A stretch of 64,000 bases of DNA from an uncultured Planctomycetaceae bacterium (GTDB lineage Bacteria > Planctomycetota > Planctomycetia > Isosphaerales > Isosphaeraceae). Numbering within the stretch: the first letter of the stretch is position 1; each line of letters opens with the position of its first letter. Where the stretch lies: positions 2,976,001 to 3,040,000 of the forward strand of contig CAWIAD010000002.1 of NCBI GenBank assembly GCA_963833985.1, written 5' to 3'. This document shows, piece by piece, positions 47,338-63,636 of this stretch. Under the pieces are notes generated by a model. The model had not been told where the DNA came from. It saw only the letters and a list, made by a program, of their open reading frames with translations, and did no database searches. A program made the translations under genes and the position numbers.

Positions 47338-48670
47338 CAAGGGCATTCCTCATGCGTTCGTGGACATCGTGGGTCCAGGACTCACATAGCCGTGCCAGTC
47401 CGAGCAAATCGCGATCCGCGCCGGGCCGGCCGACAAGCTGGATACCCAGGGGAAGACCCTGCCGGCAAAAACCGACAGGGAAGCAGACCGTCGGAAAACC
47501 GAGATAACTCCAGGGCGCCTGGAACACGGGATCCCCGGTCGTCGAACGGTCCGGTGCGGGACCGATCGCCGCGGGAATGACGAAGCCATCCGCATCCCCC
47601 AGGAGCGCGAGCATGCGGGTGACAGACTCTGCCTTCTGCCAGCGGGCCAGCGCCACGTCCGCGTCGCGATAGCTTTCCCCTTCGCGAATGAGTTCGGTGA
47701 TCCGCGGCGGATAGGCTTCCGGATAGAGTGCAAGCCGATGCCGATGAACCGAGCTCGCCTCACTCGCCATGATCATCCTGTGGCTCGTGAGCAGGGTCTC
47801 GAACAGGTCGGGTGCCTCCCGCTCCCCGACGCGGGCCGCACCCCAGCCTTCAAACCACTTCAGAAACGCCCCCATCGCCCAGCGCATCTCGGCGTGGGCA
47901 CGGTCGTCGAAGAACCCGGCCAGGCGGACTAACTGCACAGGACTGCGCTCCGGATATCGCGCTTCCAGCGGCTGTTCCTCCAGGCCCTGCAACGCCTCGT
48001 AGATGATCCTCAGGGCGCCCACGTTGCGAGCGAGGGGCCCAGGATGGTCAAGACTGGGAGCCAGCGGATAGATTCCCTCCGTGCTGAGCTGCCCGAAGCT
48101 CGGCTTCATCCCGCAGACACCGCAGAACGCGGCCGGCCGGATGATCGAGCCGCCGGTCTGAGTGCCCAGCGCGCCCAGGCACATGCCGCACGCGACCGCA
48201 GCCGCCGACCCGCTCGATGACCCGCCAGGCGTGCGATCCAGGTTCCACGGGTTGCGTGTGACGGGAGGATCAACCCAGGCGTAGGCCGTGGTCACCGTCT
48301 TGCCGAGGATCACCGCTCCTGCCGCGCGCAGCCGCGCGACGATCGCCGCATCGCGGTCCCTGGGCCGATCGTCGCCGCGCGGGGAGCCGCAGAGCGAGGG
48401 CATACCCTGGACGTCGATGATGTCCTTGACCCCGATCGGCATCCCGTGCATTGGCCCGCGGTCACGGCCGGCGTGCAGCTCGGCATCCAGCTCCCGGGCC
48501 CGAGCCAGGGCGCCATCCCGGTCCACACGCACCCAGGCCCGCACCTCGTGCTCGCGCCGATCGATCTGATCGAGGCAGTTTTGAAGGATCTGGACGCACG
48601 TCGTTTCGCCGAGGCGCAGGCGGCGGGCCGTGCCGGCGATGGTCCCAGAATCTTCGGGAAGGAGCCTCAT
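47324..48670 (-). CDS. Amidase-signature family enzyme (GatA-like)
   Basis: GVKDIIDV, TPGGSSSGSAAAVA, GTQTGGSIIRPA. Confidence 0.92.
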   Translation of the reverse strand: MRLLPEDSGTIAGTARRLRLGETTCVQILQNCLDQIDRREHEVRAWVRVDRDGALARARELDAELHAGRDRGPMHGMPIGVKDIIDVQGMPSLCGSPRGDDRPRDRDAAIVARLRAAGAVILGKTVTTAYAWVDPPVTRNPWNLDRTPGGSSSGSAAAVACGMCLGALGTQTGGSIIRPAAFCGVCGMKPSFGQLSTEGIYPLAPSLDHPGPLARNVGALRIIYEALQGLEEQPLEARYPERSPVQLVRLAGFFDDRAHAEMRWAMGAFLKWFEGWGAARVGEREAPDLFETLLTSHRMIMASEASSVHRHRLALYPEAYPPRITELIREGESYRDADVALARWQKAESVTRMLALLGDADGFVIPAAIGPAPDRSTTGDPVFQAPWSYLGFPTVCFPVGFCRQGLPLGIQLVGRPGADRDLLGLARLCESWTHDVHERMRNALDGRA

Positions 48671-50257
48671 CGCGCCCCCTTCCGCGGCGATGAGACGGGG
48701 CCGGCGCTCGAGGAAGGTTGCAGCTTCTGGAGGATCCGGTGCACGAACTGCCCGGCGAAGTCCTGCAAAAACTCGGTCCGGCTGGTCTCCTCGAACTGGC
48801 GCAGCACCACGCTGTCAATTCCCCCCGCGCCCCAGGACTGCTCCTGGCGGAAGTACTCCAGGAACGCCTTGCCGGAGATGCGCGTCAGGTAGGCCATCGT
48901 CACCGCCTGGACCGCGCCGCCGGCCGCGAAGCCCACCAGCGAGCGCTTGAAGATGCCGGCGATCAGCGACGTGGCGGCCTCAATGAGCCCGAGCTTGAGC
49001 ACCGATTGCACCATCTGGCCTGCCAGCCCGCGCACCTGGCCTGCCGAGAGCTCCGCCCCCTGCACGCGCCAGCTCGGCGATCATCTCGAGCTGCACGGCG
49101 CCTCCGGAGAGGATGTCGAGCGCGGGAATCGGGTTGGCGAAGACCGTGGCCGCGGTGATCCACTGGTGCTGGTCCACGACCTCGATCGCTCGTCGCTCCC
49201 GCTCGCGGCGAAGCTGCTCCTGGGCCTCCTGCTCGAGCACCCGGCCGCGCACCAGCAGGTTCATGGCGTGCAGAAGTTTTCCCTCGCCGCGAAGCAGCTC
49301 GACCATCCGCGACAGGAGCCCGGCGATGTCCGGGTCTTCCTTCTCGATCACGGTCTCGAACGTGCCGTCCCCGCGCTGGATGCGGACCGGCAGGGGCCGG
49401 GGTGCGGCCGCCACGGCCACGATGTCCTCCGGCTCGATCACGCCGGAGAGCCGCTCGCGCAGCCTGGACCGGATCGCCGCCAGGTCGGCGTCGGGGAACT
49501 GGTCCTTCTTGTTGAGCACGACGATCGACCGCTTGCCCAGCCGGGCCAGCTCGACCAGGGGCGTATACTCGCTGCGGATCAGGTCATGATCCACCACGAA
49601 CAGCAAGAGGTCGGCACGCACCGCCAGGGACCGGGCCAGGGTCTCGCGCGCCTCGCCGCCTTCGCCGGCTTCGGACATGCCGGGCGTGTCGGTCAGCTCC
49701 ACGAGGGCGTCCACCGACCGGAGCTGATAAGTGTGCGCGGCACCCTCGAGTGTCGTTCCCATCACCGCTTCGGTCTTGCCGACCTCCTGGCCGATCAGGG
49801 CGTTGATCAGTGAGGTCTTGCCCGCCGAGACCGTGCCGAAGACGACGACGCTCAGCTTGTTGAGCTCCTCCTGCCGCTCGGCATGCAGCCGCGCGAGCTC
49901 GCGGGCAAGCTTGGCCCTTTGAGACGGATCATTCACCCGGTCGATGAATTCCCCGGCGCGTTCCGCCTGGAGCCGGGCGGACGCGGCCAGGGTGCCGGGT
50001 ACCGGCTCCGCCGCGGAACGCGACGCAGCATCGCTGCCGCGCCGACCGGGTCGCCGGAACCACCGACCCACGGCCAGGGGCGCGCCGAGCCCGACGGCCA
50101 ATGTCAGCAACAGTGCCGCTGGCAGACTCATGCCGCGGATCCAGGGACCGGACCGCCCCTGGTTCCCAGCGAGCACGACGACCCCGGCCGCCAGCAACAG
50201 CAGCGCCGCCGCGAGCAGAAGGTAGACGTAAGCGTTGCGCGTGCGACGGATGCTCAT
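48667..50257 (-). CDS. Second Era-like GTPase with DUF697 and N-terminal TMs; frameshift near 49060
   Basis: GTVSAGKTS, DTPG, NKKD, ANPIPALD. Confidence 0.85.
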
Positions 50258-50605
50258 GCCGGCGGCCGCCTCCCCGGGCCAGTTGGTTGCGGCGTCATGA
50301 GCACGGCCAACCCCGACCCAGGCGCCCTTCTTCGATTCTGACGCCAGATGCCACGCAGTGGCTAGGGGTCTTCAGCAGGGCTCCAGCGCAGCAAGCCCGC
50401 GTCAGGGCGGACCCCAAGGAGCCAGACCCGGCTGGAGCATCCGTGGGACGAGCTTAAAACGAGCAAGGCGCTACGTCCCACCCTCGCTTCCCAGACTCTG
50501 TCGAGAGGCCCCATGGATGAGAATCTGATGATTCGTAATGGAATGCCATTGCCCTCTTGAGCCAGGGTGTCCGGCAAAGCAAACGGCCCTTACGGCTGGC
50601 GATCG
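50142..50605. repeat. 464-bp direct repeat, copy 1 (5' end and upstream region of GTPase operon)
   Basis: Near-identical to 56281-56744 (offset 6139; about 7 substitutions counted by eye). Confidence 0.92.
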
Positions 50606-51131
50606 CGTACCGGATCGATTCCTGAGACCTTTGCTCTCACCAAGCAGAGAACATGGCTCGTGGGAAAGTCGAAACTTCCGAGCATGGACCTCGCCGTGAG
50701 CGTAGCCATGGCCCGGATTCGAAGCTCAACGGCAACGACCCCGCGTTAATCATCGACTGCTTTGTTTACCCCTGGACCCCAACCGGCCCTATCGGCATGA
50801 TGAAGGCCAAGGGAGCCACGCGGCGGGATCACGGCCAGTCGGCGGGCAGGTAGTGGGCGTCGTTGATCCTGTTTTTGCCCGCGATGTTGCCGCACAGTCC
50901 GGCACGGTCGTGATCCGCGCCGTAGCCGGAAATGAGCGTGAAGTTCGGCTGGCCGGAGCCGCCGAGGAGGAAGGAAGTCGAGCCAGTGAGCATGCGGGCG
51001 AATCCTCTGCAATCGAAGTACAGGCACGTCCAGAGCTTGATCCATCCCGCGCAGTTTGCTCGCGATCAGACGAATGCCCCTTCGCCATCCGTGAGCACGC
51101 GGCGGAGGAGCCGGGTGCCTTGATCTCCAGG

Positions 51132-51584
51132 CTAATGGACTCCAGAGAGGGGCACGCCAACCGTTTGGGCGGCGGATTTCAGCTTGTCATCAAGGGTTGC
51201 CAGCGGCAATCCCCGCCGCATGGCCAGCTCCAGGTAGGCGGCGTCATGGGCCGAAAGATGATGATCGCGGGCAAGGTTCAACGTATTCCCGAACGCATGG
51301 GCCTTTGTTTCGTCATCGACGGCGATGGGGAGCGAGGACAGAAACCCAATCCAGGTGACCGTATTGGCCTGGGTTGACCGTTTACGGCGTTCTCCGACCA
51401 GCAGGGTGTTCGCCACCTCAAGATGCCAGAGATCGGGCACAAAAGCCTGCTCGCAAGCCAATGCGTCGAGCACGGTCTGCGAGTAGGCGTCCTGCTCGTC
51501 GGGGAAGCACCACGCCACGGAAACCGAACTGTCGATGACCAGCCCAGTCTCGGGCGCCTTGGCGGCTGTTTTCTTCCGGCTCAA
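51132..51584 (-). CDS. vapC: VapC PIN-domain toxin
   Basis: VIDSSV, LEVANTL, LSAHDAAYLELA, LATLD. Confidence 0.9.
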   Translation of the reverse strand: MSRKKTAAKAPETGLVIDSSVSVAWCFPDEQDAYSQTVLDALACEQAFVPDLWHLEVANTLLVGERRKRSTQANTVTWIGFLSSLPIAVDDETKAHAFGNTLNLARDHHLSAHDAAYLELAMRRGLPLATLDDKLKSAAQTVGVPLSGVH

Positions 51585-51834
51585 GGCCGTCCCTCCTCGA
51601 TCATCTCCTTGATTTCGCGGGCCTTGAGAGAGCCGTGCTTGCGGGCATGGTCCTGGCTATAGGCCCGGAACTGGGCGATCACGGCGGATACGTCGTGGGC
51701 GGGCACGGCCTGGGCGGGGGACAAAACCGCGACAGGCTTGCCGCGTTTGGTGATGGTGATCGTTTCACCCTTCTCCACCTGGCTCAAGAGCGGGGCAGGT
51801 GCGTCTTGGCTTCGTAGCTGCCAACAGAGTTCAT
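51581..51834 (-). CDS. Phd/YefM-family antitoxin; frameshift near 51792
   Basis: MNSVGSYEAKTHL...QVEKGETITITKRGKPVAVL. Confidence 0.85.
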
Positions 51835-52308
51835 CTGGTACACTCCATGCATGAACTGGTCTAATGCACCTAGTCTAACCGATCTTGCCAAGCCGGTTTA
51901 ATCGCTGGCCCACCCTTCCGCGTACTCAACCAGTATCCTGAGCGTCGTCTGCACGTGGTCCGTCATGCCCAGCCCGGAAGGGAAATCAAGCGATGTGCTC
52001 TCGGCCTGGATTTGGTAGCCATGCGAACACCTCCTGGAAAAGGGACAGGGAAAGTCGCGATTGTGCCAAATGGCATGGAGCGGCAATCCACCCTGCGAAA
52101 CAGGTCCGTGACAGTTGGCATCCATCGCGAATAGTGCCAGCCCGACGCAAGTTACGACTCCTGGATCGGAGACAGACCGGGGCACCGTCGGACGCTTGTC
52201 CGGAGGCCGGGTGGCACTATTCCCCTTTAGCTTCCCATCACTCGCCGATCGCCAGTTTTCCTGTCACACTCGCAAAGCGTTCGGAGGTATTCTCTTCGGA
52301 GGCAGGAG

Positions 52309-52944
52309 ATGAGCATTCAAAACGATGACCGCGAGGCTGATGAAATGTTTCCCCTGCTCGTCGAGGCCGGTAAGGGAAATCGCGACGCCTTCGAGAAAGC
52401 ATTCAACCAGCACCGCGTGGAGTTGCGCCGCGTGGTTGCCCGGCGGCTGGACCGATCGCTACGCGGCCGCCTGGATCCTTCGGACATTGTCCAGGAAGCC
52501 CACCTGGAGGCCCTGGAACGTCTTCCGGAGTACATGGTACGCCGGCCGATGCCGTTTCGTGCCTGGATTTTCCGGACCGCGCTCCAACGATTGCTCAAGC
52601 TCCGCCAGCATGCTCTGGCTGCCCGCCGCGACGTCGGCCGGGAAAAGCCACTGCCCGAGCCCGCATCATCCGCGGGCATCCGGCCGATGCTGACGTCCGG
52701 CTTGACGCCCAGTCAGGACGCGGCGGCGCGTGAGCGGACGAACCGGCTGAACCAGGTACTTCACCAGCTCGCTCCAGCCGATCGGACCATCCTTGAACTT
52801 CGCACCTTTCAGGGGTTGTCTTACGAGGAAGTTGGCAATCGCATGGAGATTGATCCCGCGGCAGCGCGGAAGCGCTATGGGCGGGCGTTGCTGCGGCTTC
52901 GCGTCCTGCTCCTTGCCAACGGACTTACGGAGTCGCGACTGTGA
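52309..52944 (+). CDS. ECF sigma factor coupled to a Ser/Thr kinase
   Basis: LRGRLDPSDIVQE, TPSQ, region 4 LSYEEVG..AARKRYGRAL; overlaps kinase start. Confidence 0.9.
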   Translation: MSIQNDDREADEMFPLLVEAGKGNRDAFEKAFNQHRVELRRVVARRLDRSLRGRLDPSDIVQEAHLEALERLPEYMVRRPMPFRAWIFRTALQRLLKLRQHALAARRDVGREKPLPEPASSAGIRPMLTSGLTPSQDAAARERTNRLNQVLHQLAPADRTILELRTFQGLSYEEVGNRMEIDPAAARKRYGRALLRLRVLLLANGLTESRL

Positions 52945-55199
52945 GCCATCACGGTGTTGCCACGGGAACCTCGCTGTCCGCGCTGGTTGCCCGTGCCGCG
53001 GACGAATTCCTGGACCAGCTTGGTCGGGGCGACCAGCCCGAGGTCTCCGAGTTTGCCCTGCGCTACCCGCAGATTGCCGGAGTTCTTCCTCAGATTCTTC
53101 CCTTTTTACGCATGCTTCAGGACTTCGATCCCGCTTCGAATCAGCCGTTTTCCCTCGCCCCTGAGACCGGTACGCTGGGGGATTTCCGCCTGGTTCGTGA
53201 GCTTGGCCGGGGAGGGATGGGCATCGTCTATGAGGCCGAGCAAATTTCACTGGCGCGGCGCGTGGCGCTCAAAGTGCTTCCGGTCAACCCCGGGCTCAGC
53301 AACAGGCAACTCGCGAGGTTCCAGATCGAGGCCCAGGTCGCGGCGGTTCTCAATCATCCCCACATTGTCCCGATCTTCGCTGTGGGATGCGACCAGGGGG
53401 TGCACTTTCACGCGATGCAACTGATCGAGGGATCCTCGATTGCGGGGCTGCTTCACCAGCCCGCCCAACGCCACGATGGGGCCGCCGGATTTCCTGCCCG
53501 CGAGGCGGCCCGGATGGCGATGCAGGCGGCTGATGCCCTTGAGCACGCTCATGCCCTGGGCATCCTTCACCGCGACATCAAGCCCGGCAACTTGCTGCTC
53601 GATGGGCGCGGGCATCTCTGGGTCAGCGATTTCGGCCTGGCCCACCTCCAGGGAGTCAGCGACCTGACGCTCACCGGAGACCTGCTGGGGACACTCAGGT
53701 ACATGAGCCCTGAGCAAGCGGCCGGCGGTCGAGTTCTCGATCCGCGGACAGACGTCTACTCCCTGGGCGCTACCCTTTACGAGCTGCTTGCCGCGGAGCC
53801 GGCTTTCGACGCGGCCGATCGCCAGGAGTTGCAGCGACAGATTGCCGGTGCAGAGCCCCGCCCACTCAAGGAACGCGATGCCAGCATTCCCCGTGACCTC
53901 GAGACCATTGTCTTGAAAGCCATGGCCAAGGAGCCGGCCCACCGCTACGGCTCGGCGGGGGAGCTGGCCGAAGACCTTGGCCGCTTCCTTGCGGATCAGC
54001 CGGTTCTCGCGCGTCGGCCAAGCCTCACCGAGAAAGCTTCCCAATGGTCTCGCCGCCATCACCGCCTCATGGTCGCGGGTGCTTTCTTGCTGATGCTGGT
54101 CGCCGTGTCGCTGGCCGGAGGTATGGCGGTCTTGTGGAAAGAGCGGCAGAGGTCGAATGCCGCGCTTTCCACGGCTCAGGAAGCGAGGAATCGCGAACGC
54201 GAAGCGCTTCGATTCACCTTCGCGGCATCGGACCGGATCACTTCCAGGGCGCTGGCACTGGTCGCCGCTCCAGATTCCGCGATCAGCGAACTAGACCGGG
54301 AATTCTGCCGTGCGGCGATGGCGTATTACCAGGCGATCTCCGATCGCTATCGCGACGACCCGGAGATGCGCCGGATCGCCGCGGCCGCCGATCACCGCAT
54401 CGGCTTCATCCGGATGATTCTCGATGAACCGGGTGCGGAGGACGCCTATCGCCGGTCGCTCGCGCTCTACGAGAGCGTGCGTTCCAGTTCGCTCAGAGAT
54501 CCAGAACTGGAGACCGAACTGACTCTCGTGCTCGCCGATCAATCGCTCCTGCTCCGGAAAAGGAGGCAGTATACAGAGGCGGCGGATTGCCTGCGCCGGG
54601 TGTTGCAGGTTCAACAAGGCCTGGTCGACGAGCGACCGTTGGTAACATCGTTCCTGATCAGCCTGCTCTTCCGTCAAGCCGAGCTTATGGTACTTCTGGA
54701 AGACACGAATCAGGCGAGCCAGGCCGAGAAAATTCACTCTCGGCTTCAGGAGAACTTCGCCCTGGCACGGCATCGAGGGGCCGGAAACTCCACCATCTGG
54801 AACAGACTTGCCTGGCCGCTGGTAAGTCGGCCGGGTGCCACGGCCCAGGACGCGAGCATGGCCGTCGCGATTGCCCGCGAGGCCGTGACCCTGGCACCCA
54901 AGGATGGAGCTTGCTGGAACACCCTGGGCATTGCCTGTTACCGTGCCGGAGATTTCACAGCGGCCGATGCCGCCCTGGATCGGTCCATGGACTTGCGCTC
55001 CGGGGGCGATCCTTATGACTGGTTCTTTGTCGCCATGATCCGGGACCATCAGGGACAACGAGACACGGCCTTGCAATGGTTCCAGCGTGCCCACCGCTGG
55101 CTGGACGCTCAACCACATCGGGACGCGCTCGCGGAACTGCCTGGCTTTCAGTCTGAGGCCATGCGCGTCCTGAAGATTGAGACAACCTCCTCGAAATGA
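52941..55199 (+). CDS. Hanks-type Ser/Thr protein kinase with TM and TPR repeats
   Basis: LGRGGMGIVY, VALK, HRDIKPGN, DFG, GTLRYMSPEQ; TPR-like WNTLGIACYRAG. Confidence 0.93.
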   Translation: MSHHGVATGTSLSALVARAADEFLDQLGRGDQPEVSEFALRYPQIAGVLPQILPFLRMLQDFDPASNQPFSLAPETGTLGDFRLVRELGRGGMGIVYEAEQISLARRVALKVLPVNPGLSNRQLARFQIEAQVAAVLNHPHIVPIFAVGCDQGVHFHAMQLIEGSSIAGLLHQPAQRHDGAAGFPAREAARMAMQAADALEHAHALGILHRDIKPGNLLLDGRGHLWVSDFGLAHLQGVSDLTLTGDLLGTLRYMSPEQAAGGRVLDPRTDVYSLGATLYELLAAEPAFDAADRQELQRQIAGAEPRPLKERDASIPRDLETIVLKAMAKEPAHRYGSAGELAEDLGRFLADQPVLARRPSLTEKASQWSRRHHRLMVAGAFLLMLVAVSLAGGMAVLWKERQRSNAALSTAQEARNREREALRFTFAASDRITSRALALVAAPDSAISELDREFCRAAMAYYQAISDRYRDDPEMRRIAAAADHRIGFIRMILDEPGAEDAYRRSLALYESVRSSSLRDPELETELTLVLADQSLLLRKRRQYTEAADCLRRVLQVQQGLVDERPLVTSFLISLLFRQAELMVLLEDTNQASQAEKIHSRLQENFALARHRGAGNSTIWNRLAWPLVSRPGATAQDASMAVAIAREAVTLAPKDGACWNTLGIACYRAGDFTAADAALDRSMDLRSGGDPYDWFFVAMIRDHQGQRDTALQWFQRAHRWLDAQPHRDALAELPGFQSEAMRVLKIETTSSK

Positions 55200-55405
55200 G
55201 CCTCTCCCTGACATTCTCACGAGGACGACGCTGCTCCTGAGGCGCCCTCGACAGGATCGTTCCGCGCCGCTCGCTGCCGGTTCGTGGGATCAGACCACCG
55301 GGCCGAACGGCGAGGTTGCGCCCAGGGTTCGCGCCTGGCCAAGGCTCTCCGGCGCGGCTCCCTGAAGCTCAGCACCAAGAGCCGATCGTGAAGGAGTATT
55401 CGTTC

Positions 55406-56152
55406 ATGCCGCTGCCTGATCTTCGTCGCGCCAGTTTCGTTGCCTTTGCCTTGACCATCCTCGCCTGCCAGCAGGCCGCGCGGGCGGATAACATTTACAA
55501 CGTGACCGGTTTGAACTCCAGCGACTTCATTCCGTTCGAAAACGATGGCACCCCCAATCGTCCGCCCGGCGATCACCTGGGCAATGAGATCACCTTTGCC
55601 GGCACGGCGCGGGAACTCGACCACGTCCAGGTCGTCTTCGCCTCGATCGGTCCCATCGAGACCGACACTTATACCCTGGACCTCTACCGCAATAACGGAC
55701 CAATCGACCCAGGCAGCGGTCTGGCCATGCCCGGCACCTTGATCGCAGAGTTCAAGACCAGCGCTCTGAATCAACCGCTACCCGGTAATGGTGGCTACGG
55801 TGTGGACTGGTATTTCAACCCCATCCTGGTTCCCGACACGCTTACCGCCGTGATCAGTTCCAGCTACAGCACGACCACTCCCGGCCAGTATATGGGCCCA
55901 TACGCGGCGGTTTATCCCCCGCTGAACGGCAGTGCCATCAACACCGTATGGTACGGTGACGGCACCCCCGGCAACTGGCAAGCGAACAACACCTGGGCTC
56001 TGAGCGACGGCGGCACGACCAATTACTTCGACATGCGGTTCGACGCTGTTCCGGAACCATCGTCCATGTGCCTGGCCGTGATGGGCGCCGTCCTGGTTCT
56101 TGGCTCCAGCCTGTTTCCTCGGATTCGAGAACGTCTGGCTCGCCGTGAATGA
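55406..56152 (+). CDS. PEP-CTERM surface protein
   Basis: Signal peptide ending ARA; C-terminal VPEPSS + hydrophobic helix + basic tail. Confidence 0.85.
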   Translation: MPLPDLRRASFVAFALTILACQQAARADNIYNVTGLNSSDFIPFENDGTPNRPPGDHLGNEITFAGTARELDHVQVVFASIGPIETDTYTLDLYRNNGPIDPGSGLAMPGTLIAEFKTSALNQPLPGNGGYGVDWYFNPILVPDTLTAVISSSYSTTTPGQYMGPYAAVYPPLNGSAINTVWYGDGTPGNWQANNTWALSDGGTTNYFDMRFDAVPEPSSMCLAVMGAVLVLGSSLFPRIRERLARRE

Positions 56153-56280
56153 CCAATGCTTGTTTTTTCCCCGGGGCCGTGTTTCGTACACACCGGGCAT
56201 GGGCGAACTCGCAAGGTTCACCCATGCCCAGCACCGAAATCCCGCTCGATCTCTGCACCATACGTTTCGATTCAAGTATT

Positions 56281-56744
56281 CAGAGACCGGACCGCCCCTG
56301 GTTCCCCGCGAGCACGACGACCCCGACCGCCAGCAACACCAGCGCCGCCGCGAGCAGAAGGTAGACGTAAGCGTTGCGCGTGCGACGGATGCTCATGCCG
56401 GCGGCCGCCTCCCCGGGCCAGTTGGTTGCGGCGTCATGAGCACGGCCAACCCCGACCCAGGCGCCCTCCTTCGATTCTGACGCCCGATGCCACGCAGTGG
56501 CTAGGGGTCTTCAGCAGGGCTCCAGCGCAGCAAGCCCGCGTCAGGGCGGACCCCAAGGAGCCAGACCCGGCTGGAGCATCCGTGGGACGAGCTTAAAACG
56601 AGCAAGGCGCTACGTCCCACCCTCGCTTCCCAGACTCTGTCGAGAGGCCCCATGGATGAGAATCTGATGATTCGTAATGGAATGCCATTGCCCTCTTGAG
56701 CCAGGGTGTCCGGCAAAGCAAACGGCCCTGACGGCTGGCGATCG
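56281..56744. repeat. 464-bp direct repeat, copy 2; carries a 38-aa truncated GTPase N-terminus (56280-56396, minus)
   Basis: Near-identical to 50142-50605. Confidence 0.92.
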
Positions 56745-56918
56745 TGGGGAAATAAAGGAAATAAAGGAAATAAAGAAATAAGAAGAAATAAAGGGACAGG
56801 CATTGTAAGGGAAAGAAAGGGGAAAGAAAGGGAAAGAAAGGGACAGGCATTGTTGCTTGCCCCGAGACGCTTGCAAGACTGCAATGCCTGTCCCTTTCTT
56901 CTGTGTCCCTTTCTTCTG
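56745..56918. mobile_element. Palindromic mini-element with stuttered flanks (copy 1)
   Basis: AAAGGGACAGGCATTG (56837-56852) / CAATGCCTGTCCCTTT (56882-56897); flanks GGAAATAAA x3, GGGAAAGAAA about x3, TGTCCCTTTCTTCTG x2. Confidence 0.7.
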
Positions 56919-57324
56919 CAAGCGGGGCGACGAGATCGCGCCACGCGGACGACGCTACGAGGGTCGCGTCGTCGTGTTGATCGGGGCGGTGAATAGTTCG
57001 GCCACCTTCCAGTTCGCCCAGGTCGTGAAAGAAAGCAAGCTGGCGACGCTTGTCGGTCAGACTACCGGGGGCAATCAGAGGGGGATCAACGGCAGCGCCT
57101 TCTTCTTCGTTACCCTGCCGAACTCGAAGATCGAGGTCGATCTGCCGCTGGTGGCTAATTTCATCGGCGACGAGCGGCCCACGGGCGAGAAGATACCGTT
57201 TCAGACGATTCCCGATGCCGGTATTGACCCTGACGTTTTGGTTAAGCCCAGCGTCGAGGACATTGCGGCGGGCGTGGATAGCGAGTTGAAGGCGGCCAGG
57301 GCGCTGCTGAAGGGCGGGAAGTAG
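56919..57324 (+). pseudogene. C-terminal fragment of an S41-family peptidase
   Basis: YEGRVVVLI..NSSAT, ATLVGQTTGG, LPNSKIEV, GIDPDV; 5' end cut at the palindrome. Confidence 0.75.
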
Positions 57325-57339
57325 GGGGGAAGCCAGGAT

Positions 57340-57630
57340 GGAGCACGTCAGAATCTTGCCCTGCTTCGCGTTCTGGGCGACCGCCGCCAGTACGAGCGCC
57401 TTGAACGCGTCTGCATCGACCTCCTCGCCTTCGTGTGGGTCGATCGCCCATCTCGCGTTTCCTTCCAGGCTGGAATTGAAGAGGCCCGATGGGTCAGGGA
57501 TACTCGCTCCCTTGGCGAAGGTCAGCTTGACCTAAGGGTTGCCGGTGCAGACGATCCCGTCGCGAGACCAGGTAAGAGCTCCCGCGGGATTCGACGGCTT
57601 GAACCATTTCCGCTCCTCGGTCGTCTCAGG
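57340..57630 (-). pseudogene. DUF1801-family fragment
   Basis: KWFKPSNPAG..WSRDGIVCTG*VKLTFAKGASIPDPSGLFNSSLEGN..IDPHEGEEVDADAFKAL; internal stop, no start. Confidence 0.65.
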
Positions 57631-57893
57631 ATCAACCCGGTGGCCGCGGGGATCGCAGAGGTGCCCGAGGCCAGCCCGCACACGTCGATCAAGGAGCGGG
57701 TCGGCCACGTCCATTAGCAGGGGCGAGCGGAGGACCTGAAGGCCGCCGAGGCCGGCAGCGTGGCGGGGTCGCAGGCGGCGGAGGACCTGGAAGAGGGCCT
57801 GTGGCTGTACCCGATCGAGTACCGCCGGGGGCTGGAATCGGAGTCGGGTCGCAGTCGCGAAGGGATCGTCGAGGAGTTCTCACTGGGCAGCTA

Positions 57894-59066
57894 GTGTCCT
57901 GAGTTACAAATTCACCAAATAACCTTGACTTATCATGTATTCGTCATATAATCTCTCAAAGGAGATTTATGATGAATAAAGGTGGTCGCCCCAAGGCTAC
58001 TCTCACTTTGAATGATGTCGAGCGCCAGAAACTCGAAGCGTGGTCGCGCCGGCCCAAGACCAGCCAGCGTCTCGCCCTCCGTTCGCGGATCATCTTGGCT
58101 TGCGCTCAAGGTTTCGATAATCAGGAAGTCGCCGCACAGCTCCGGGTGAATGTCGTGACGGTCGGGAAATGGCGGAAACGTTTCCTCCTCGATCGTCTCG
58201 ACGGCCTGTCCGACGAGCCAAGGCCGGGGGCGCCCTGCAAAATCACGGACGCAATGGTCGAGGCCGTTGTGACCAAGACTCTGGAGGAGAAACCCAAGGC
58301 CGCCACGCATTGGAGCACTCGGGGCATGGCGGAAGCCGTCGGCTTGTCTCAGACAGCGATCTCGCGTATCTGGCGAGCGTTCGAGTTGAAGCCTCACCGC
58401 AGCGAGACGTTCAAGCTTTCCACGGACCCCTTTTTCATCGAGAAGGTCCGCGACATCGTCGGGTTGTATATGAGCCCGCCGGAGCGCGCTATCGTCTTGA
58501 GCATCGACGAGAAGAGCCAGGTGCAAGCGTTGGACCGTACCCAGCCGTTGCTTCCCATGGGGCCTGGCCAGGCGGAGAGGCGAACTCCGGATTATGTACG
58601 CAATGGGACGACTTCGCTGTTCGCCGCCTTGGACGTCGCGACAGGTCGTGTGATTGGCAAATGCTACCGTCGCCATCGACAACAAGAATTCCTCAAATTC
58701 CTCAACGAGATCGATAGCCAGATCGCCAAAGCACCAGGCGTCGAGATTCACCTCGTCATGGACAACTACGGCACACACAAAGCTCCAGCCGTGAAGCGGT
58801 GGTTCGCTCGCCATCCCGAGTATCATCTGCATTTCACTCCCACCAGCGGCTCTTGGCTGAACCAGGTTGAACGATTCTTCGCGGAGATTACCGAGAAGCG
58901 AATTCGCCGTGGAGTATTCCGGAGCGTGGCGGCGTTGGAACAGGCGATCCATGAATTCCTGGCAAAACACAACGTAAATCCCAAGCCTTTCGTATGGACG
59001 GCAGATGCTGATATGATCTTAGATCGAGTGGCGAGGGTTTGTGAGCGAACTTCTAACTCAGGACAC
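57894..59066 (+). mobile_element. Intact IS630-family insertion sequence
   Basis: TIRs GTGTCCTGAGTTACAAATTC / GAACTTCTAACTCAGGACAC; TA on both sides within CTAG. Confidence 0.95.
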
Positions 59067-59069
59067 TAG
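57969..59069 (+). CDS. IS630 family transposase
   Basis: HTH ([15 protein letters not shown]), [22 protein letters not shown]. Confidence 0.95.
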
Positions 59070-59150
59070 TTATTGCTGGTGGATTACACGGGCCGGCTGT
59101 ATCGCGAGGGGAAGGCGGCGATCTCGGCGGAGCTGGCCGGGATTCCTGGA

Positions 59151-59260
59151 AGAAGGACAAGGACAGAAGGACAAGGACAGGCATTGTTGCTTGCCCCGAG
59201 ATGCTTGCAAAATGGCAATGCCTGTCCCTTTCGTCCCTTGTCCCTTTCGTCCCTTTCGTC
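59151..59260. mobile_element. Palindromic mini-element with stuttered flanks (copy 2)
   Basis: GGACAGGCATTG (59175) / CAATGCCTGTCC (59227); core differs from copy 1 at about 4 positions; flanks AGAAGGACAAGGAC x2 and GTCCCTT(TC) about x4. Confidence 0.7.
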
Positions 59261-59685
59261 TCTCCTGGCTCGAAATTCCTCGCTTGAAGGACTTTTCGCG
59301 CGCGCTTCGTGAGCCGAGGCGCGATGGCTCTATCGACGTAGCGGGCGTTGCTGATGATCCATGCGCATGTGGATGCGCAAAAAATACCCCATCGCAACTT
59401 ATGAGTTGAACATTCAAAGGCTCCGTCCTATGCTTCGGAGGCGCAATTGCCTTCAACGTCGATGTGCTTCGCATGAAGGCATTCGATAGAACGATGAATG
59501 CGTTCACGCAAGATTCCTGCTAACCACGTTTCCAAGCGAGCCTGGCCGCATTGAATATCGCGGTGGGCTGTGGTTCCCCCGCGACCCGGACAGCACCATC
59601 CGAGACGTGGCGAGCGCGGCTGCGCGCTGGCCACACGTCCAACCCGTGTGCGAACCGCGTTAAATCTCCCATGCAGGACACAACC

Positions 59686-61053
59686 ATGCGAAAGGAAAGT
59701 TCTGATCGCGCCAGTCCCACCCGGCGGAAAATCCCCGCCCTACTGGGCCTCGGACTCGCGGCGTCCATGCTACTCGTCGCGGGCCTGCTGCCGCCCCTTC
59801 TCAATTCAGGCGATGCGCGCGCCGAGGGTACGAAGAACCGGGCTAAGAGCAGCCCCAGCCGCGTACAGGCAAGGCGGCGCAAACCGATACCAAAACCAAG
59901 CCCCGCGCCGGCACCTGCGCCCTCGCCCACACCCAGGCCAGCCGTAGTCAGCACACCATGGGTCGTGTTCGGCTACAGCGACCTGGGAATGCACTGCATG
60001 AACCAAGACGACTCCGAGCTCTGCTTGCTGCCGCCCTACAGCACCTATCGCGCTCAGGTGATCATCCGCGGAGAGGAGCCGCACATCGTCACCTCGGGAG
60101 CAACCGTTTCTTACAGCATCCCGGGCAACACCTATTCCGTCGGCAAATCCAACTTCTGGAACTACGTCCAGGCGCTCTTCGGAGTGAAACTGCCACCGAA
60201 TATCGGTCTGACGGGAAACGGGCTCACGGGGAGGATGTCGCCGACAAGCAACAACGACTGGCAGGTCACGGCAGTCCCCCTGACGCCCATCATGGATAAC
60301 GGCAAGACGAATACGTTTGCCCTCGGTAAGATCACCGTGACGCAAGGCAGCAAGACAATGGCCACCACCCAGGCAGTCCTGCCGGTGTCTTGGGAGATCA
60401 GTTGCAACCTCTGCCACAATCGGCCCGGCTTCCCGACCACCGCGGCCGACATCCTGGAGGCGCATGACCGCCTTCACAACACAAATCTTCAAAACCAGAA
60501 ACCTGTGCTTTGCGCGATCTGCCACGCCGACCCGGCGCTGGGCACGACCGGCGTCGCGGGAGTTCCAACGCTGTCGGCCTCGATGCACACGGCCCACGCC
60601 AGCCGATTCACGCCTCCGGTGCTGGCTCAGGTCAATGGCATCAACTGCTATGCGTGTCATCCTGGCATCAACACCCAGTGCCAGCGCGACATCCACCTCA
60701 CCAAGGGCATCCACTGCGGCGATTGCCACGGCACCATGACGGCCGTAGGCAACCCAAACCGTATCCCGTGGACTGACGAGCCCAAGTGCGCGAACTGCCA
60801 CAACGTGCCCGGGCACCAGTATGAGGAGCCAGGCAAGCTCTACAAGCAGTCGCGCGGACATAACGGCGTGATGTGCACCAGCTGCCATGGCGCACCGCAC
60901 GCCATCACCCCGACCGTGACCGCCAACGATAACGTCCAGGCGATCACGCTCCAGGGATACGCCGGAACGATCGACAACTGCGTGGTCTGCCACAAGCGGC
61001 GCCCCGACGACAGTTTCAACCACTCGCTCGGCGAAGGAGGTGGTGGCGACTGA
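59686..61053 (+). CDS. Exported multiheme cytochrome c (7 CxxCH)
   Basis: CNLCH, CAICH, CYACH, CGDCH, CANCH, CTSCH, CVVCH; signal peptide, Pro-rich linker, DLGMHCM motif. Confidence 0.88.
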   Translation: MRKESSDRASPTRRKIPALLGLGLAASMLLVAGLLPPLLNSGDARAEGTKNRAKSSPSRVQARRRKPIPKPSPAPAPAPSPTPRPAVVSTPWVVFGYSDLGMHCMNQDDSELCLLPPYSTYRAQVIIRGEEPHIVTSGATVSYSIPGNTYSVGKSNFWNYVQALFGVKLPPNIGLTGNGLTGRMSPTSNNDWQVTAVPLTPIMDNGKTNTFALGKITVTQGSKTMATTQAVLPVSWEISCNLCHNRPGFPTTAADILEAHDRLHNTNLQNQKPVLCAICHADPALGTTGVAGVPTLSASMHTAHASRFTPPVLAQVNGINCYACHPGINTQCQRDIHLTKGIHCGDCHGTMTAVGNPNRIPWTDEPKCANCHNVPGHQYEEPGKLYKQSRGHNGVMCTSCHGAPHAITPTVTANDNVQAITLQGYAGTIDNCVVCHKRRPDDSFNHSLGEGGGGD

Positions 61054-61262
61054 TCTGAAATCAGCCGCGGCGTGAGCAACTCGAACAGACTCCACAACGT
61101 CGACGCGGCCGGGATCGGTTCCAGGCGTCGGTCCCGGCCGCCGTCCTCTGGGAACAGACAACACATCCCTTCGGTGTCTTCCCTCTCGACTCCTGAAGCA
61201 CATTCGTCCACATCGACTCCGGGGAGTTCTCTCCAGCCCGCCTGCGCACACGCCACGACGCC

Positions 61263-61307
61263 AAGGGACAGGACAAAAACAGGACAAAAAGGACAGGCAA
61301 CGCATTC
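61263..61307 (+). repeat. Stuttered element end upstream of transposase
   Basis: CAGGACAAAAA x2 then GGACAGGCAACGCATTC. Confidence 0.65.
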
Positions 61308-61366
61308 ATGACCTGGGCGGTGGAATCGGGTAGCTTGTGCGGATCTTGCTGGGAGGTCCGTGCATA

Positions 61367-61700
61367 ATGATTGCCCGTGCGCATCTGGTGGATCCGTCGG
61401 TTACCGGCTGGTACCACTGCATCACGCGGTGCGTGCGACGGGCGTTTCTGCTGGGTGAAGGCGGGCTCGACCGCAAGGAATGGATCGAACGGCGGTTGCG
61501 GGAACTTGCGGAGATCTTTTCTGTTGCCGTGGGCGGGTTCGCCATCCTCGACAACCGCCTGCACCTGCTGGTGCGGCTCGATCCTGATGTCGCCGCCGGG
61601 TGGTCGGATGAGGAGGCCGTTCGCCGCTGGGGCCGGCTCGTTCCGCCCCGCGACAAGGCCAGGCAGGCTCTGGCGGTCTCGGAAGCCTGGATGCAGGACC
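61367..61700 (+). pseudogene. N-terminal part of HUH/Y1 (RAYT-like) transposase
   Basis: YHCITRCVRRAFLLG, DRKEWIERRL, DNRLHLLV (expected HxH has H>R), WSDEEAVRRW; cut at stutter. Confidence 0.8.
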
Positions 61701-61748
61701 GGAGAAAGAAAGGACAGGAGAAAGAAAGGACAGGCATCTTGCGACTTC
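61701..61748 (+). repeat. Stuttered element end truncating the transposase
   Basis: GGAGAAAGAAAGGACA x2 then GGCATCTTGCGACTTC (shared with 63080-63095). Confidence 0.65.
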
Positions 61749-61925
61749 CCATTTTACAAAAGTGGCTGGTCTGAACCGCTATGGGTTCTTCCCCGTGAGT
61801 CATGAAGAGGAAGGGGCTGAGTCGCTTTGAGTGAGTTCGAGTCGATGAGAACCTCTCAAACCTCACCCAGGAAGCGATTACCCAGGCGGTCACGATGTCG
61901 GAGTCTCGGTGATGCGTCGCGGGGA

Positions 61926-62492
61926 CTAGAGTTCGTCCTCGTGCGGCAGGAGCCGAGCCACCGTCTCGGTAAGGCGACACTGTCCGAGCGTGGCCAGATA
62001 TTCGGCCGCGGTCTTCGGGGGCCGCGTCAGGCCCTCCCGCTGACGCCGTGCCGACTCGAGTACGGCAGCCGGGGCCTCGTCCCAGAGACGGACGATGAAC
62101 TCATCTGGGTGCACGGCTTCGATGTGGTAGCCGCCCAAGACCGAGGCTGGGAAGTCGCTCAAGTTGAACGTGACGATGACCCCTGCTCCGCCGTGGATGG
62201 CTGCGGCGAGTACGTGACGGTCATCTGGGTCAGGGAGCGTGACGGTCCGGATGAGGAATTCATACCGGGTGATCAGGCAGTCCGGGACGTGCCGGTCCAT
62301 GAGTTCTCGACACCGGTCAAGGCTTTCCCGGGTGATGTCCGGACGGTCCGCCAGGACGCTCCGTATCCACTCGTCGTGGATTTCGTCGGTCCAACGGGCT
62401 TGGAAGAGGCTCGTCAAAGCAAGCCGCATGAGGAAATCGCGGAGCGGGGCCGGGTAGAGCACGCAGGCGTCGAGGACAACGATTCGAGCCAT
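61926..62492 (-). CDS. PIN-domain protein (putative toxin)
   Basis: VVLDACVLY, WTDEIHDEW, PDPDDRHVLAAA, TFNLSDF. Confidence 0.9.
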   Translation of the reverse strand: MARIVVLDACVLYPAPLRDFLMRLALTSLFQARWTDEIHDEWIRSVLADRPDITRESLDRCRELMDRHVPDCLITRYEFLIRTVTLPDPDDRHVLAAAIHGGAGVIVTFNLSDFPASVLGGYHIEAVHPDEFIVRLWDEAPAAVLESARRQREGLTRPPKTAAEYLATLGQCRLTETVARLLPHEDEL

Positions 62493-62496
62493 GCGG

Positions 62497-62958
62497 TCAG
62501 TAGCCCATATCGAGGTCTTGGCTCAATGCCGCAAGCTCATCGAGGGCTTCGTGCCGCCTGGCCTCGAAATCCCGCTTGTAGGCGAGGAGGTCCGTCAGTA
62601 GCACGCGGCGGTGACTCCCCACCTTCCGGCCGGGAATCGCCCCCTCGTCCAGGAGCTTCACCAGGTGCGGCCGGGAGACGTTCAGGAGGTCAGCTGCTTG
62701 CTGGGTCGTCAGTTCCGCATGAACCGGCGTCAGGGTCACCGCGTTCCCCTGGCCCAGCTCCGCCAGTGCCCGGACGAGCAACCGCAACGCCAACGGAGGT
62801 AGCACCAGCTCCTCCCTCTCGGTGCCGGTTCTTAGCTCCAGCCGGAGCCCGCCTTTTTGACCCAGGTGGGCCGCGAGTTTCTCGCCCATTTCCCTGGCCA
62901 GGGCCGCGTCGGCCTCGCTCGGTGTGACCACCTCATTGCCGTTTGCCAGTTGGGCCAT
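62497..62958 (-). CDS. Excisionase-like HTH protein (putative antitoxin)
   Basis: ELTTQQAADLLNVSRPHLVKLL..VGSHRRV; upstream of PIN gene. Confidence 0.88.
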   Translation of the reverse strand: MAQLANGNEVVTPSEADAALAREMGEKLAAHLGQKGGLRLELRTGTEREELVLPPLALRLLVRALAELGQGNAVTLTPVHAELTTQQAADLLNVSRPHLVKLLDEGAIPGRKVGSHRRVLLTDLLAYKRDFEARRHEALDELAALSQDLDMGY

Positions 62959-63070
62959 CGCTTGCCGCCTCCTTCCGTCGGTTCTCGACTCCCAATTACG
63001 CTACCACATCCGAACCATAATCGCAACAAACGAAACAATGCCACCGGGCGGCATGGGCGTCGATTACACC

Positions 63071-63260
63071 GGAAGGTCAGGCATCTTGCGACTTCTCAAC
63101 AAGCGGAGGGCTTACGATCGGCAGATATTCTCATGAAGCGCGGTCCAACGGGCTTTCTTCAGGCTTGTTATCCATGAAAGCTTGCGCGATGGCTTCCGGT
63201 GCGTCCATCGTTAGGATGCGTTGCATGTCCCATCGCTCCTCATCGCTCCTATCGCTCCTT
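63071..63260. mobile_element. Putative non-autonomous mini-element (about 160 bp plus stutter)
   Basis: Left end GGTCAGGCATCTTGCGACTTC; right end (minus) GGGACATGCAACGCATC; outer stutter CATCGCTCCT about x3. Confidence 0.55.
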
Positions 63261-63329
63261 GGAGCGGCTTGACCACGGCAAGCCAGGCGGCCAGGGCAAG
63301 TTCGGACAACGAATCCCGCACGGACGGCT

Positions 63330-63636
63330 TGCACGCCACCCTGAACTGTGGCTGGCCCCATTCGTGCTCCTGGACGATCCGGCCGCGGAGCCGACGAACA
63401 ACCGCGCGGAGCGGTTGCTTCGCGACCCGGGCGTCATCGCGCGGAAGGTATCGTGCGGGAACCAGACCGAGGCGGGTCAGGGCGCATGGGAGCGGCTGAC
63501 CAGCGTGGCGATGACCTGCCAGCAACACTCCCAAGACTTCGTCTCCTGGCTGGCCGGGTGCCTGCCCCTCGACGCTCAGGTGCTCCCTATCCCGCCGCCC
63601 CCAACCCAGGCCGCTCGACCCGAACGCCGGGAGTAA
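63330..63636 (+). pseudogene. IS66-family transposase C-terminal fragment
   Basis: EPTNNRAERLLR..VIARKVSCGNQT..G. Confidence 0.75.

Follow-up and report, generated by a model that had tools for sequence, protein, structure and literature searches.

The 64-kb window analysed here (C2:2976001-3040000, from the 10.2-Mb, 65% GC genome of an uncultured member of the Isosphaeraceae) contains an island of gene fragments that includes two pieces of a Y1-type HUH transposase gene, a cytochrome c gene, a PIN/HTH gene pair and two mini-elements (Table 1). The sequence GG[AT]CA[GT]GCA occurs nine times between positions 56794 and 63230 and five more times in the remaining 57 kb of the window, and marks the ends of the element to which the transposase belongs. 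An outer tandem array is present at eight of these nine ends, the sole end without one being that at 63075. An earlier reading of the letters alone (the sequence-only reading) had noted both the recurring end motif and the outer stutters at all but one copy; both claims hold, with coordinates agreeing within 4 nt, and a ninth site, at 56794, had been counted there as part of the first array. Each array consists of nested copies of the tip of its own element and lies on the outer side only.

Genome-wide, a repeat of at least 9 nt was found on the outer side of 54 of 226 GGACA[GT]GCA sites, compared with 1.4% of 3000 random sites, an enrichment that the sequence-only reading had proposed as a check. 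Repeats of this length, scored outside and inside the motif as it had also proposed, are found on the outer side of 29 of 71 left ends in relatives and 10 of 16 in this genome, on the inner side of 5 of 71 and 0 of 16, and at 15 of 1380 and 6 of 320 flank controls, respectively. The relatives' loci number 79, of which 71 have a left motif, six have none by pattern and two are too short; at 2 of the 71 the wrong motif was picked, which lowers these counts. A Shewanella-type relative (gammaproteobacterial-type, hereafter gamma-type, loci; 56 of 80 metagenome loci were usable, the others having too little flank) has arrays at 19 of 47 left ends and 14 of 35 right ends, with inner repeats at 1 of 47 and repeats at 8 of 860 controls. 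Arrays were also found in isolate genomes, complete isolate replicons included, and at none of 55 ends of four DDE insertion sequence (IS) families in the same assembly as the window.

Of 114 ends, 55 gave arrays that the parser could divide into units, 157 in total. All 157 are prefixes of the element's own tip, which begins 8-12 nt before GGACA at 49 of the 55 ends; 132 of them do not extend past motif position 7. The median unit length is 11 nt and most units measure 8-16 nt; longer ones reach 124 nt, and one self-duplication measures 557 bp. The units of 75-557 nt keep the same anchor as the short ones. The ends of units spread continuously and fall on 13 different dinucleotides, none of them fixed, and the dinucleotides at the tip are also varied (AA, AG, GA, CA, GG). 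Unit junctions are flush in 108 cases and carry 1-5 extra bases in 49, these spacer bases (A41 G37 C13 T8) being 79% purine. Microhomology at flush junctions is 0.77 nt against 0.46 nt for a crude null (p about 0.004), and 23 of 44 have none. The units listed in the sequence-only reading are present, but they are prefixes of the element's own tip, in arrays that seem to grow after insertion (see below), and not arbitrary, junction-specific repeats. In two complete Pseudoalteromonas replicons (L213, L214), direct duplications of 140-200 bp that end at the right tip represent a long-unit form of the array.

In some genomes the copies have a conserved tip sequence; in this genome the tip is scrambled and A/G-rich. 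A purine-rich tip was rejected as a rule of the family because gamma-type tips are A/T-rich and because of this conservation, and the ideas of an RNA intermediate with a terminator U-tract or of a primase primer were dropped because tips are conserved element sequence in some lineages. The possibility that the tip is target DNA was also rejected for the known targets, where the original sequence has a different continuation (at 50605, in the transposase and in a 99.7% duplicate).

The transposase is encoded by 13 near-complete copies (343-349 aa, 88-100% identity) among 33 matches genome-wide, an intact one lying at C2:3955385-3956428, and matches were found in 14 of 40 relatives. Its nearest named relatives are records of Isosphaeraceae and other Planctomycetota, and homologues with E up to 1e-30 form 1079 clusters at 50% identity. 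Pfam Y1_Tnp is matched at 24.7 bits (cut-off 23), no HTH family was found by Pfam at E up to 1, and a sequence search of the PDB returned no significant match. The predicted structure (pLDDT 92.3) best matches E. coli TnpAREP 4ER8 (Foldseek E 1.8e-4; Z 12.2, rmsd 3.0, 159 residues aligned). HuH (NHLH, 64-67) and Y---NP (YIDLNP, 177-182) motifs are present, T197-S198 is invariant in the alignment, and H65, H67 and Y177 are kept in at least 90% of 78 sequences. By these motifs and its modelled, TnpAREP-like fold, the protein belongs to TnpAY1 class 2, with single-strand cleavage and strand transfer as its predicted activity. No reverse transcriptase or polymerase gene was found inside the element.

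In its motifs, spacing, length and copy number the transposase fits TnpAY1 subclass 2.3, where it is set by the published description. The text of Quentin, Siguier, Chandler and Fichant 2018 (PMC6006769) gives this subclass a median length of 325 aa and a median HuH-Tyr distance of 110, which results from a 55-aa insertion; here H65 and H67 lie 112 and 110 residues from Y177. The NHLH, YIDLNP and TS motifs, the length, the long C-terminal tail and the occurrence in many copies, some diverged, are alike as well. Identity to Alteromonadales members is 34-38%, and the region beta1-alphaA is six residues shorter in the planctomycete clade than in its Alteromonadales relatives (the subclass description has a 10-aa insertion there). 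Subclass 2.1 was ruled out, as the transposase has 348 aa with a core insertion and no HTH family by Pfam at E up to 1, compared with about 238 aa and Bac_DnaA_C, HTH_23 or HTH_28 in subclass 2.1. According to a table in the same paper, about 15% of species have subclass 2.1 and about 3% have subclass 2.3. Its text lists subclass 2.3 mainly in Chromatiales and Alteromonadales and states that no REP-like or other ends were found, whereas here the subclass is abundant in Planctomycetota and has terminal inverted repeats (TIRs), mini-elements and tip arrays.

The link between motif and transposase family that the sequence-only reading had proposed is confirmed in relatives, where an inverted right motif lies 1.2-2.1 kb from the left motif, so that the pair flanks the gene, at 41 of 71 loci, often with mirror arrays. 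In the 56 gamma-type loci, a related motif precedes the gene by about 75 nt in 47 and follows it by about 220 nt in 35. The canonical right end (at 1.6 kb) was found in 1 of 16 copies in this genome and a degenerate candidate in two more; most copies here have lost it. Absence of target-site duplication had been anticipated, and none was seen in 39 of 41 two-ended loci, with 2 nt in the other two (edges are parser-defined and some are imperfect). At the left end there is no GTAG/GGAG foot and the motif is not part of a stable stem. GGACA[GTC] matches positions 3-7 or 3-8 of GGGGWSAS, and the two outer positions are mostly A. Judged by this arrangement, the element would be a TIRtron in the sense of Di Nocera, De Gregorio and Rocco 2013 (PMC3733652), with the mini-elements as its TIR dimers. 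In the text of that paper, too, a Y1 gene (TIRYT) lies between TIRs at fixed distance, and gene-less TIR dimers correspond to mini-elements. GGGGWSAS is given there as the consensus of a majority, not all, of TIRs, and the core GGACAG by itself would fit its last six positions. The TIRYTs described there were placed in subclasses 2.1, 2.2 and 2.5, with none in 2.3; tip arrays, flank swaps or a mechanism are not mentioned in its text, and four supplementary text files contain no description of the arrays either.

Elements of the IS200/IS605 family (IS608, ISDra2) share the HUH-Y1 fold and the absence of target-site duplication with the element described here, which differs in having Y---NP in place of Y---Q, no tnpB, inverted ends and untidy junctions. 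The ends of IS608 are two different hairpins on one strand. Membership of IS200/IS605 was rejected, since Y---Q, a short TnpA, subterminal hairpins and often tnpB would be expected. Membership of the REPtrons (group 2/3 RAYT) was likewise rejected, because the left end lacks the GTAG/GGAG foot of hairpin repetitive extragenic palindromes (REPs) and its motif lies in no stable stem. REPtrons, as presented in the texts of Ton-Hoang et al. (PMC3333891) and Corneloup et al. (PMC8266576), share the fold, the proposed sequence of nick, 3'-OH extension and rejoining in bacterial interspersed mosaic elements (BIMEs), and a 5'-phosphotyrosine open to a foreign 3'-OH, which is predicted for the present enzyme; here there is no GTAG-footed hairpin and no fixed CT cut site, units vary continuously and the gene moves with its ends. 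Replitron-1 (Craig 2023; text of PMC10288648) also belongs to the HUH elements, has additional sequence at its termini and has ends located at breakpoints of rearrangements, but its 'fuzzy ends' are donor flank, whereas those described here are nested self-copies. According to Ngan et al. 2024 (PMC11708052), ISs are proposed to enter existing breaks; the enzymes concerned are of the DDE type, whose ends lack arrays here. The new mobile system claimed in the sequence-only reading is not new as a family: it fits TnpAY1 subclass 2.3, and TIR-flanked Y1 genes were named TIRtrons in 2013. No account of tip arrays was found in the literature searched, which left out figures, the supplements of Quentin et al., part of those of Di Nocera et al. 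and subscription journals.

Three loci (L196, L197 and L198) are the same insertion site as found in three assemblies. Flanks and six outer left units are common to L196 and L198, whose inner units differ, and L197 has a right array of its own, unlike the other two. These differences suggest that arrays grow after insertion, at the resident element and on the inner side, beside the intact end, with short-read assembly error as another possibility. Elements also change neighbours at one end. Between L038 and L130, the element and right flank are 99.96% alike and the left flank is replaced at the tip; the swapped left flank of this Shewanella-type element (L130:1060-1120) may resemble an integron attC-type repeat. 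A mini-element at C2:510432-510484 replaces about 510 bp of a transposase copy, and the four two-ended units with testable flanks in this genome (three in the window and this one) all join non-contiguous DNA. At C2:1453097 a tip marks the end of a duplication (99%) that is at least 1.6 kb long. Of 12 ends with a paralogous outer flank, 8 break at the edge, compared with 1 of 23 controls, which indicates only that the edges are junctions, as for any insertion. Genes at L050, L057, L078 and L099 look decapitated on one side, and the other half is not across the junction. Clean gene interruption was not found: 106 open reading frames (ORFs) beside the junctions of 41 two-ended loci gave eight Pfam matches, none to the same family on both sides, a comparison of low power.

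The iterative cut-and-rejoin step suggested by the sequence-only reading remains, with copying added, the best reading of these sequences. On balance, the arrays probably arise by nicking of the tip by the transposase, short extension by a host polymerase and re-ligation, with occasional misjoining to a foreign 3'-OH. The transposase would nick the motif strand about 10 nt outside the motif, leaving a 3'-OH on the flank and a protein-linked 5' tip, in keeping with HUH chemistry as described in PMC3333891 and PMC8266576, where the enzyme stays on the 5' side and the 3'-OH is free. Starting from the freed 3'-OH, host polymerase would then copy a short stretch of the element, in most cases coming to a halt ahead of the motif or within it, possibly because of the bound enzyme. 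The extended end would be re-ligated to the protein-linked tip, each cycle adding one unit beside the intact end. The extra, mostly purine bases at junctions would be untemplated. Attack on the protein-linked tip by a foreign 3'-OH could instead connect the end with unrelated DNA, and flank swaps, deletions, partial self-duplications and decapitated genes would result; repeated misjoining events would have built the island. A nick-extend-rejoin model has already been proposed for BIME amplification (legend to Fig. 7B of PMC3333891), and the 5'-phosphotyrosine of TnpAREP is reported in PMC8266576 to be resolved by an added attacking oligonucleotide. Since unit ends show no fixed dinucleotide, no second cut would be needed, unlike in the BIME model. 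Catalysis, the choice of nicked strand and the polymerase are what this model supposes beyond the anatomy, polarity, anchoring, inner-side growth and flank swaps recorded above.

Several observations weigh against this account. The case for growth in place comes from three metagenome assemblies of one site, perhaps from one study, in which mis-assembly is possible; the loci are kin (about 30 genomes) and not independent; and over half of the ends have no array. Known TnpAREP enzymes cut fixed dinucleotides picked by a guide, according to the text of PMC8266576, and no fixed one is visible here. The spacers could be copied from shifted nicks instead of being untemplated. Two Pseudoalteromonas isolates hold the element between icd and ilvB with synteny intact when compared with an empty site of about 79% identity, and adjacent deletions are described as common for ordinary ISs in PMC11708052. 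This genome carries Ku, and the slight excess of microhomology points to polymerase realignment over pure re-ligation. That excess is expected if a polymerase moving outward stalls or runs off at the tip, because of a protein roadblock or a nicked template, then realigns inward by microhomology and recopies, the transposase binding or nicking without ligation. Such slippage would be favoured by low-complexity tips, and units of mostly 8-16 nt and growth on the inner side would fit it as well; but it is unlikely to be the cause, as about half of the flush junctions have no microhomology, the long units share the anchor of the short ones, and the extra bases are A/G on the motif strand, where untemplated A added to the opposite strand would read T.

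Microhomology would not be required if the enzyme cut both at the tip and further inside, on the new strand or the sister, and then exchanged strands, as in the BIME model with its second cleavage, which PMC3333891 presents as proposed and partly demonstrated in vitro for TnpAREP. The continuous range of unit ends over 13 dinucleotides and the extra bases in 49 of 157 units make two cuts an improbable origin. There is also little reason to favour an origin confined to the moment of insertion, when abortive priming and template jumping would act on the end of the arriving element, as seen at retroelement junctions, perhaps with help from end-joining enzymes: the arrays do lie at junctions, spacers rich in purines are a usual mark of end joining and Ku is present in this genome, but Ku was not found in three of five array-bearing genomes (which are incomplete), the element has no polymerase of its own, and inner units differ at one site across three assemblies. 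That the arrays are artefacts of assembly or polishing is hardly credible. Those of this genome are known from its assembly alone, the best of the sequencing runs compared with it sharing at most 7% of words and yielding contigs mostly of IS630 relatives, none spanning an array; the same anchored pattern nevertheless appears in records with short-read-assembler contig names (k141, k99, NODE) and in complete isolate replicons, and the DDE IS ends of the same assembly have no arrays.

A more radical version of the nick-extend-rejoin account, offered tentatively as a minority possibility, is that the enzyme never cuts a target but activates two 5' tips on opposite strands, each capturing any free 3'-OH (of the flank, a nascent strand or a break), so that failed tries add inner units and misdirected ones rewire the chromosome. 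If so, an array would record in polarised order how active the enzyme has been, and thousands of uncharacterised TIR-flanked Y1 elements would move by a third mode of HUH transposition, distinct from peel-and-paste and from rolling circle. These elements pose a puzzle in that a single-strand enzyme with inverted ends must work on opposite strands. The enzyme class and the TIR arrangement are already published, and the family is catalogued but unstudied; what is added here are ends for subclass 2.3, the polarity of growth, one-ended flank swaps, and the recognition of the subclass as a mobile element in planctomycetes and marine gammaproteobacteria. The arrays are a readable footprint, and since they place the predicted nick on the motif strand, about 10 nt beyond the motif, a first test of cleavage could be designed without difficulty. 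Should one-ended joining prove real, the elements would cause deletions and duplications without target-site duplication and would encode a programmable-free 3'-OH ligase of possible value as a tool.

Table 1. Features of the island in window coordinates
Positions	Strand	Feature	Remarks
56278..56744	-	467-bp, 98.3% copy of 50139-50605 (start and upstream region of DUF697/GTPase gene)	Halts at first array
56745..56806	+	Array of tip prefixes and aborted end	Motif 56794; ends after 13 nt
56807..56918	unstranded	Mini-element 1, 53-bp core	Inverted motifs 56841+/56893-; 10-11-nt tips; mirror arrays
56919..57324	+	Decapitated S41 peptidase	Begins at array edge; only last 134 aa of about 510 left
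57354..57633	-	Broken 3' piece of host gene	74% to ORF in locus L225
57634..59150	+	Transposase 3' part (57634-57893 and 59066-59150), pseudogene	Split by IS630; cut by array at 59150
57891..59069	+	IS630-family element (DDE_3 and HTH)	Later insertion; 7 further full copies; ends stutter-free
59151..59257	unstranded	Mini-element 2, 53-bp core	Motifs 59175+, 59227-; mirror arrays; tips unlike mini-element 1
59551..61053	+	Multiheme cytochrome c ORF	Between outward-facing ends
61268..61709	+	Array-bearing left end (motif 61291) with promoter region and first ~115 transposase codons (RCVRRAFL)	Cut at 61709
61701..63261	unstranded	Non-autonomous unit, ~1.5 kb, between 61728+ and 63230-	Arrays at both ends; carries PIN_3/HTH_17 pair
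61926..62958	-	HTH_17 (excisionase-like) and PIN_3 gene pair	
63262..63636	+	Multicopy IS66-like fragment	Cut at array edge; Pfam E 0.011, short of cut-off
56794, 56841, 61291, 61728, 59175, 63075	+	End motifs	63075 is a GGTCA variant
56893, 59227, 63230	-	End motifs	

Four breakpoints named in the sequence-only reading are all found at array edges, namely the end of the host duplication (467 bp, given there as 464 bp), the start of the S41 remnant and the two truncation points of the transposase, and the edge at 63262 adds a further one. The S41 remnant (56920-57321) has 81% identity at 100% coverage to S41 peptidases of about 510 aa. Mini-element 1 folds as a single hairpin, the HuH motif of the 5' transposase fragment is damaged to NRLH, and the degenerate left-end copy at 63075, inside the non-autonomous unit, matches that at 61728 at 21 of 22 nt. 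The PIN/HTH pair, likely a toxin-antitoxin module, is the one true passenger inside ends; the captured cargo proposed earlier, a weak claim, is limited to this pair and does not extend to the cytochrome, which, given the outward-facing ends around it, is flank. Homologues of the pair, the cytochrome, the S41 peptidase and a fourth fragment have no stuttered end at nine of nine loci of relatives, and this, like the intact icd-ilvB synteny at one Pseudoalteromonas insertion, also speaks against cargo. A dedicated cargo cassette was rejected, the 18-nt end beside the toxin-antitoxin pair being found twice in this genome and in 0 of 30 relatives. An empty-site orthologue of the island was sought in relatives, in which only 48000-50300 is kept and the remainder is scattered, synteny ending near 50300. 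Just beyond the window the island continues (L118, window-equivalent 63789-65085): it holds a ParE-type toxin with its partner, and another transposase fragment, the third. The 467-bp direct repeat (50139-56744) brackets a 5.7-kb low-GC block that contains a PIN gene, an ECF sigma factor, a Ser/Thr kinase with TPRs and a PEP-CTERM-like gene; the end motif is absent from the left junction of this block.

In this genome, regions upstream of shorter Y1 transposases (frames of 251 and 263 aa; C2:3098982, C2:6400696) have other end sequences, with arrays anchored at the tip in the same way, so that the footprint is not confined to one Y1 subclass here; judged by eye, two Y1 families other than that of the window (C2:3098982, C2:551463) show the array pattern. 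A second, 44%-identical branch of the family (C2:551463, C2:2519151; L019, L033) has a GGGGCCACCCA end and long arrays. REP-like palindromes with a GGTCGGGCTCACGCCCGAG core, present at 66 sites genome-wide, form diverged arrays downstream of most transposase copies (e.g. L001:2430-2800), where they may have replaced the right end, and also flank another Y1 gene at C2:1859932. The REP-like family GACAGGCATTCTTGCCTGTC, which shares the GGACAGGCA core, surrounds the Y1 gene C1:1082471 (C1:1082049-1082961) and occurs at 21-40 sites genome-wide, with tip-anchored partial copies at 3 of 21. A 46-bp mini-element (C2:5023786-5023831; L119:1786-1831), of which a near-identical copy lies 7.7 kb away, adjoins the tail of a putative transposase that may be of IS5 type.

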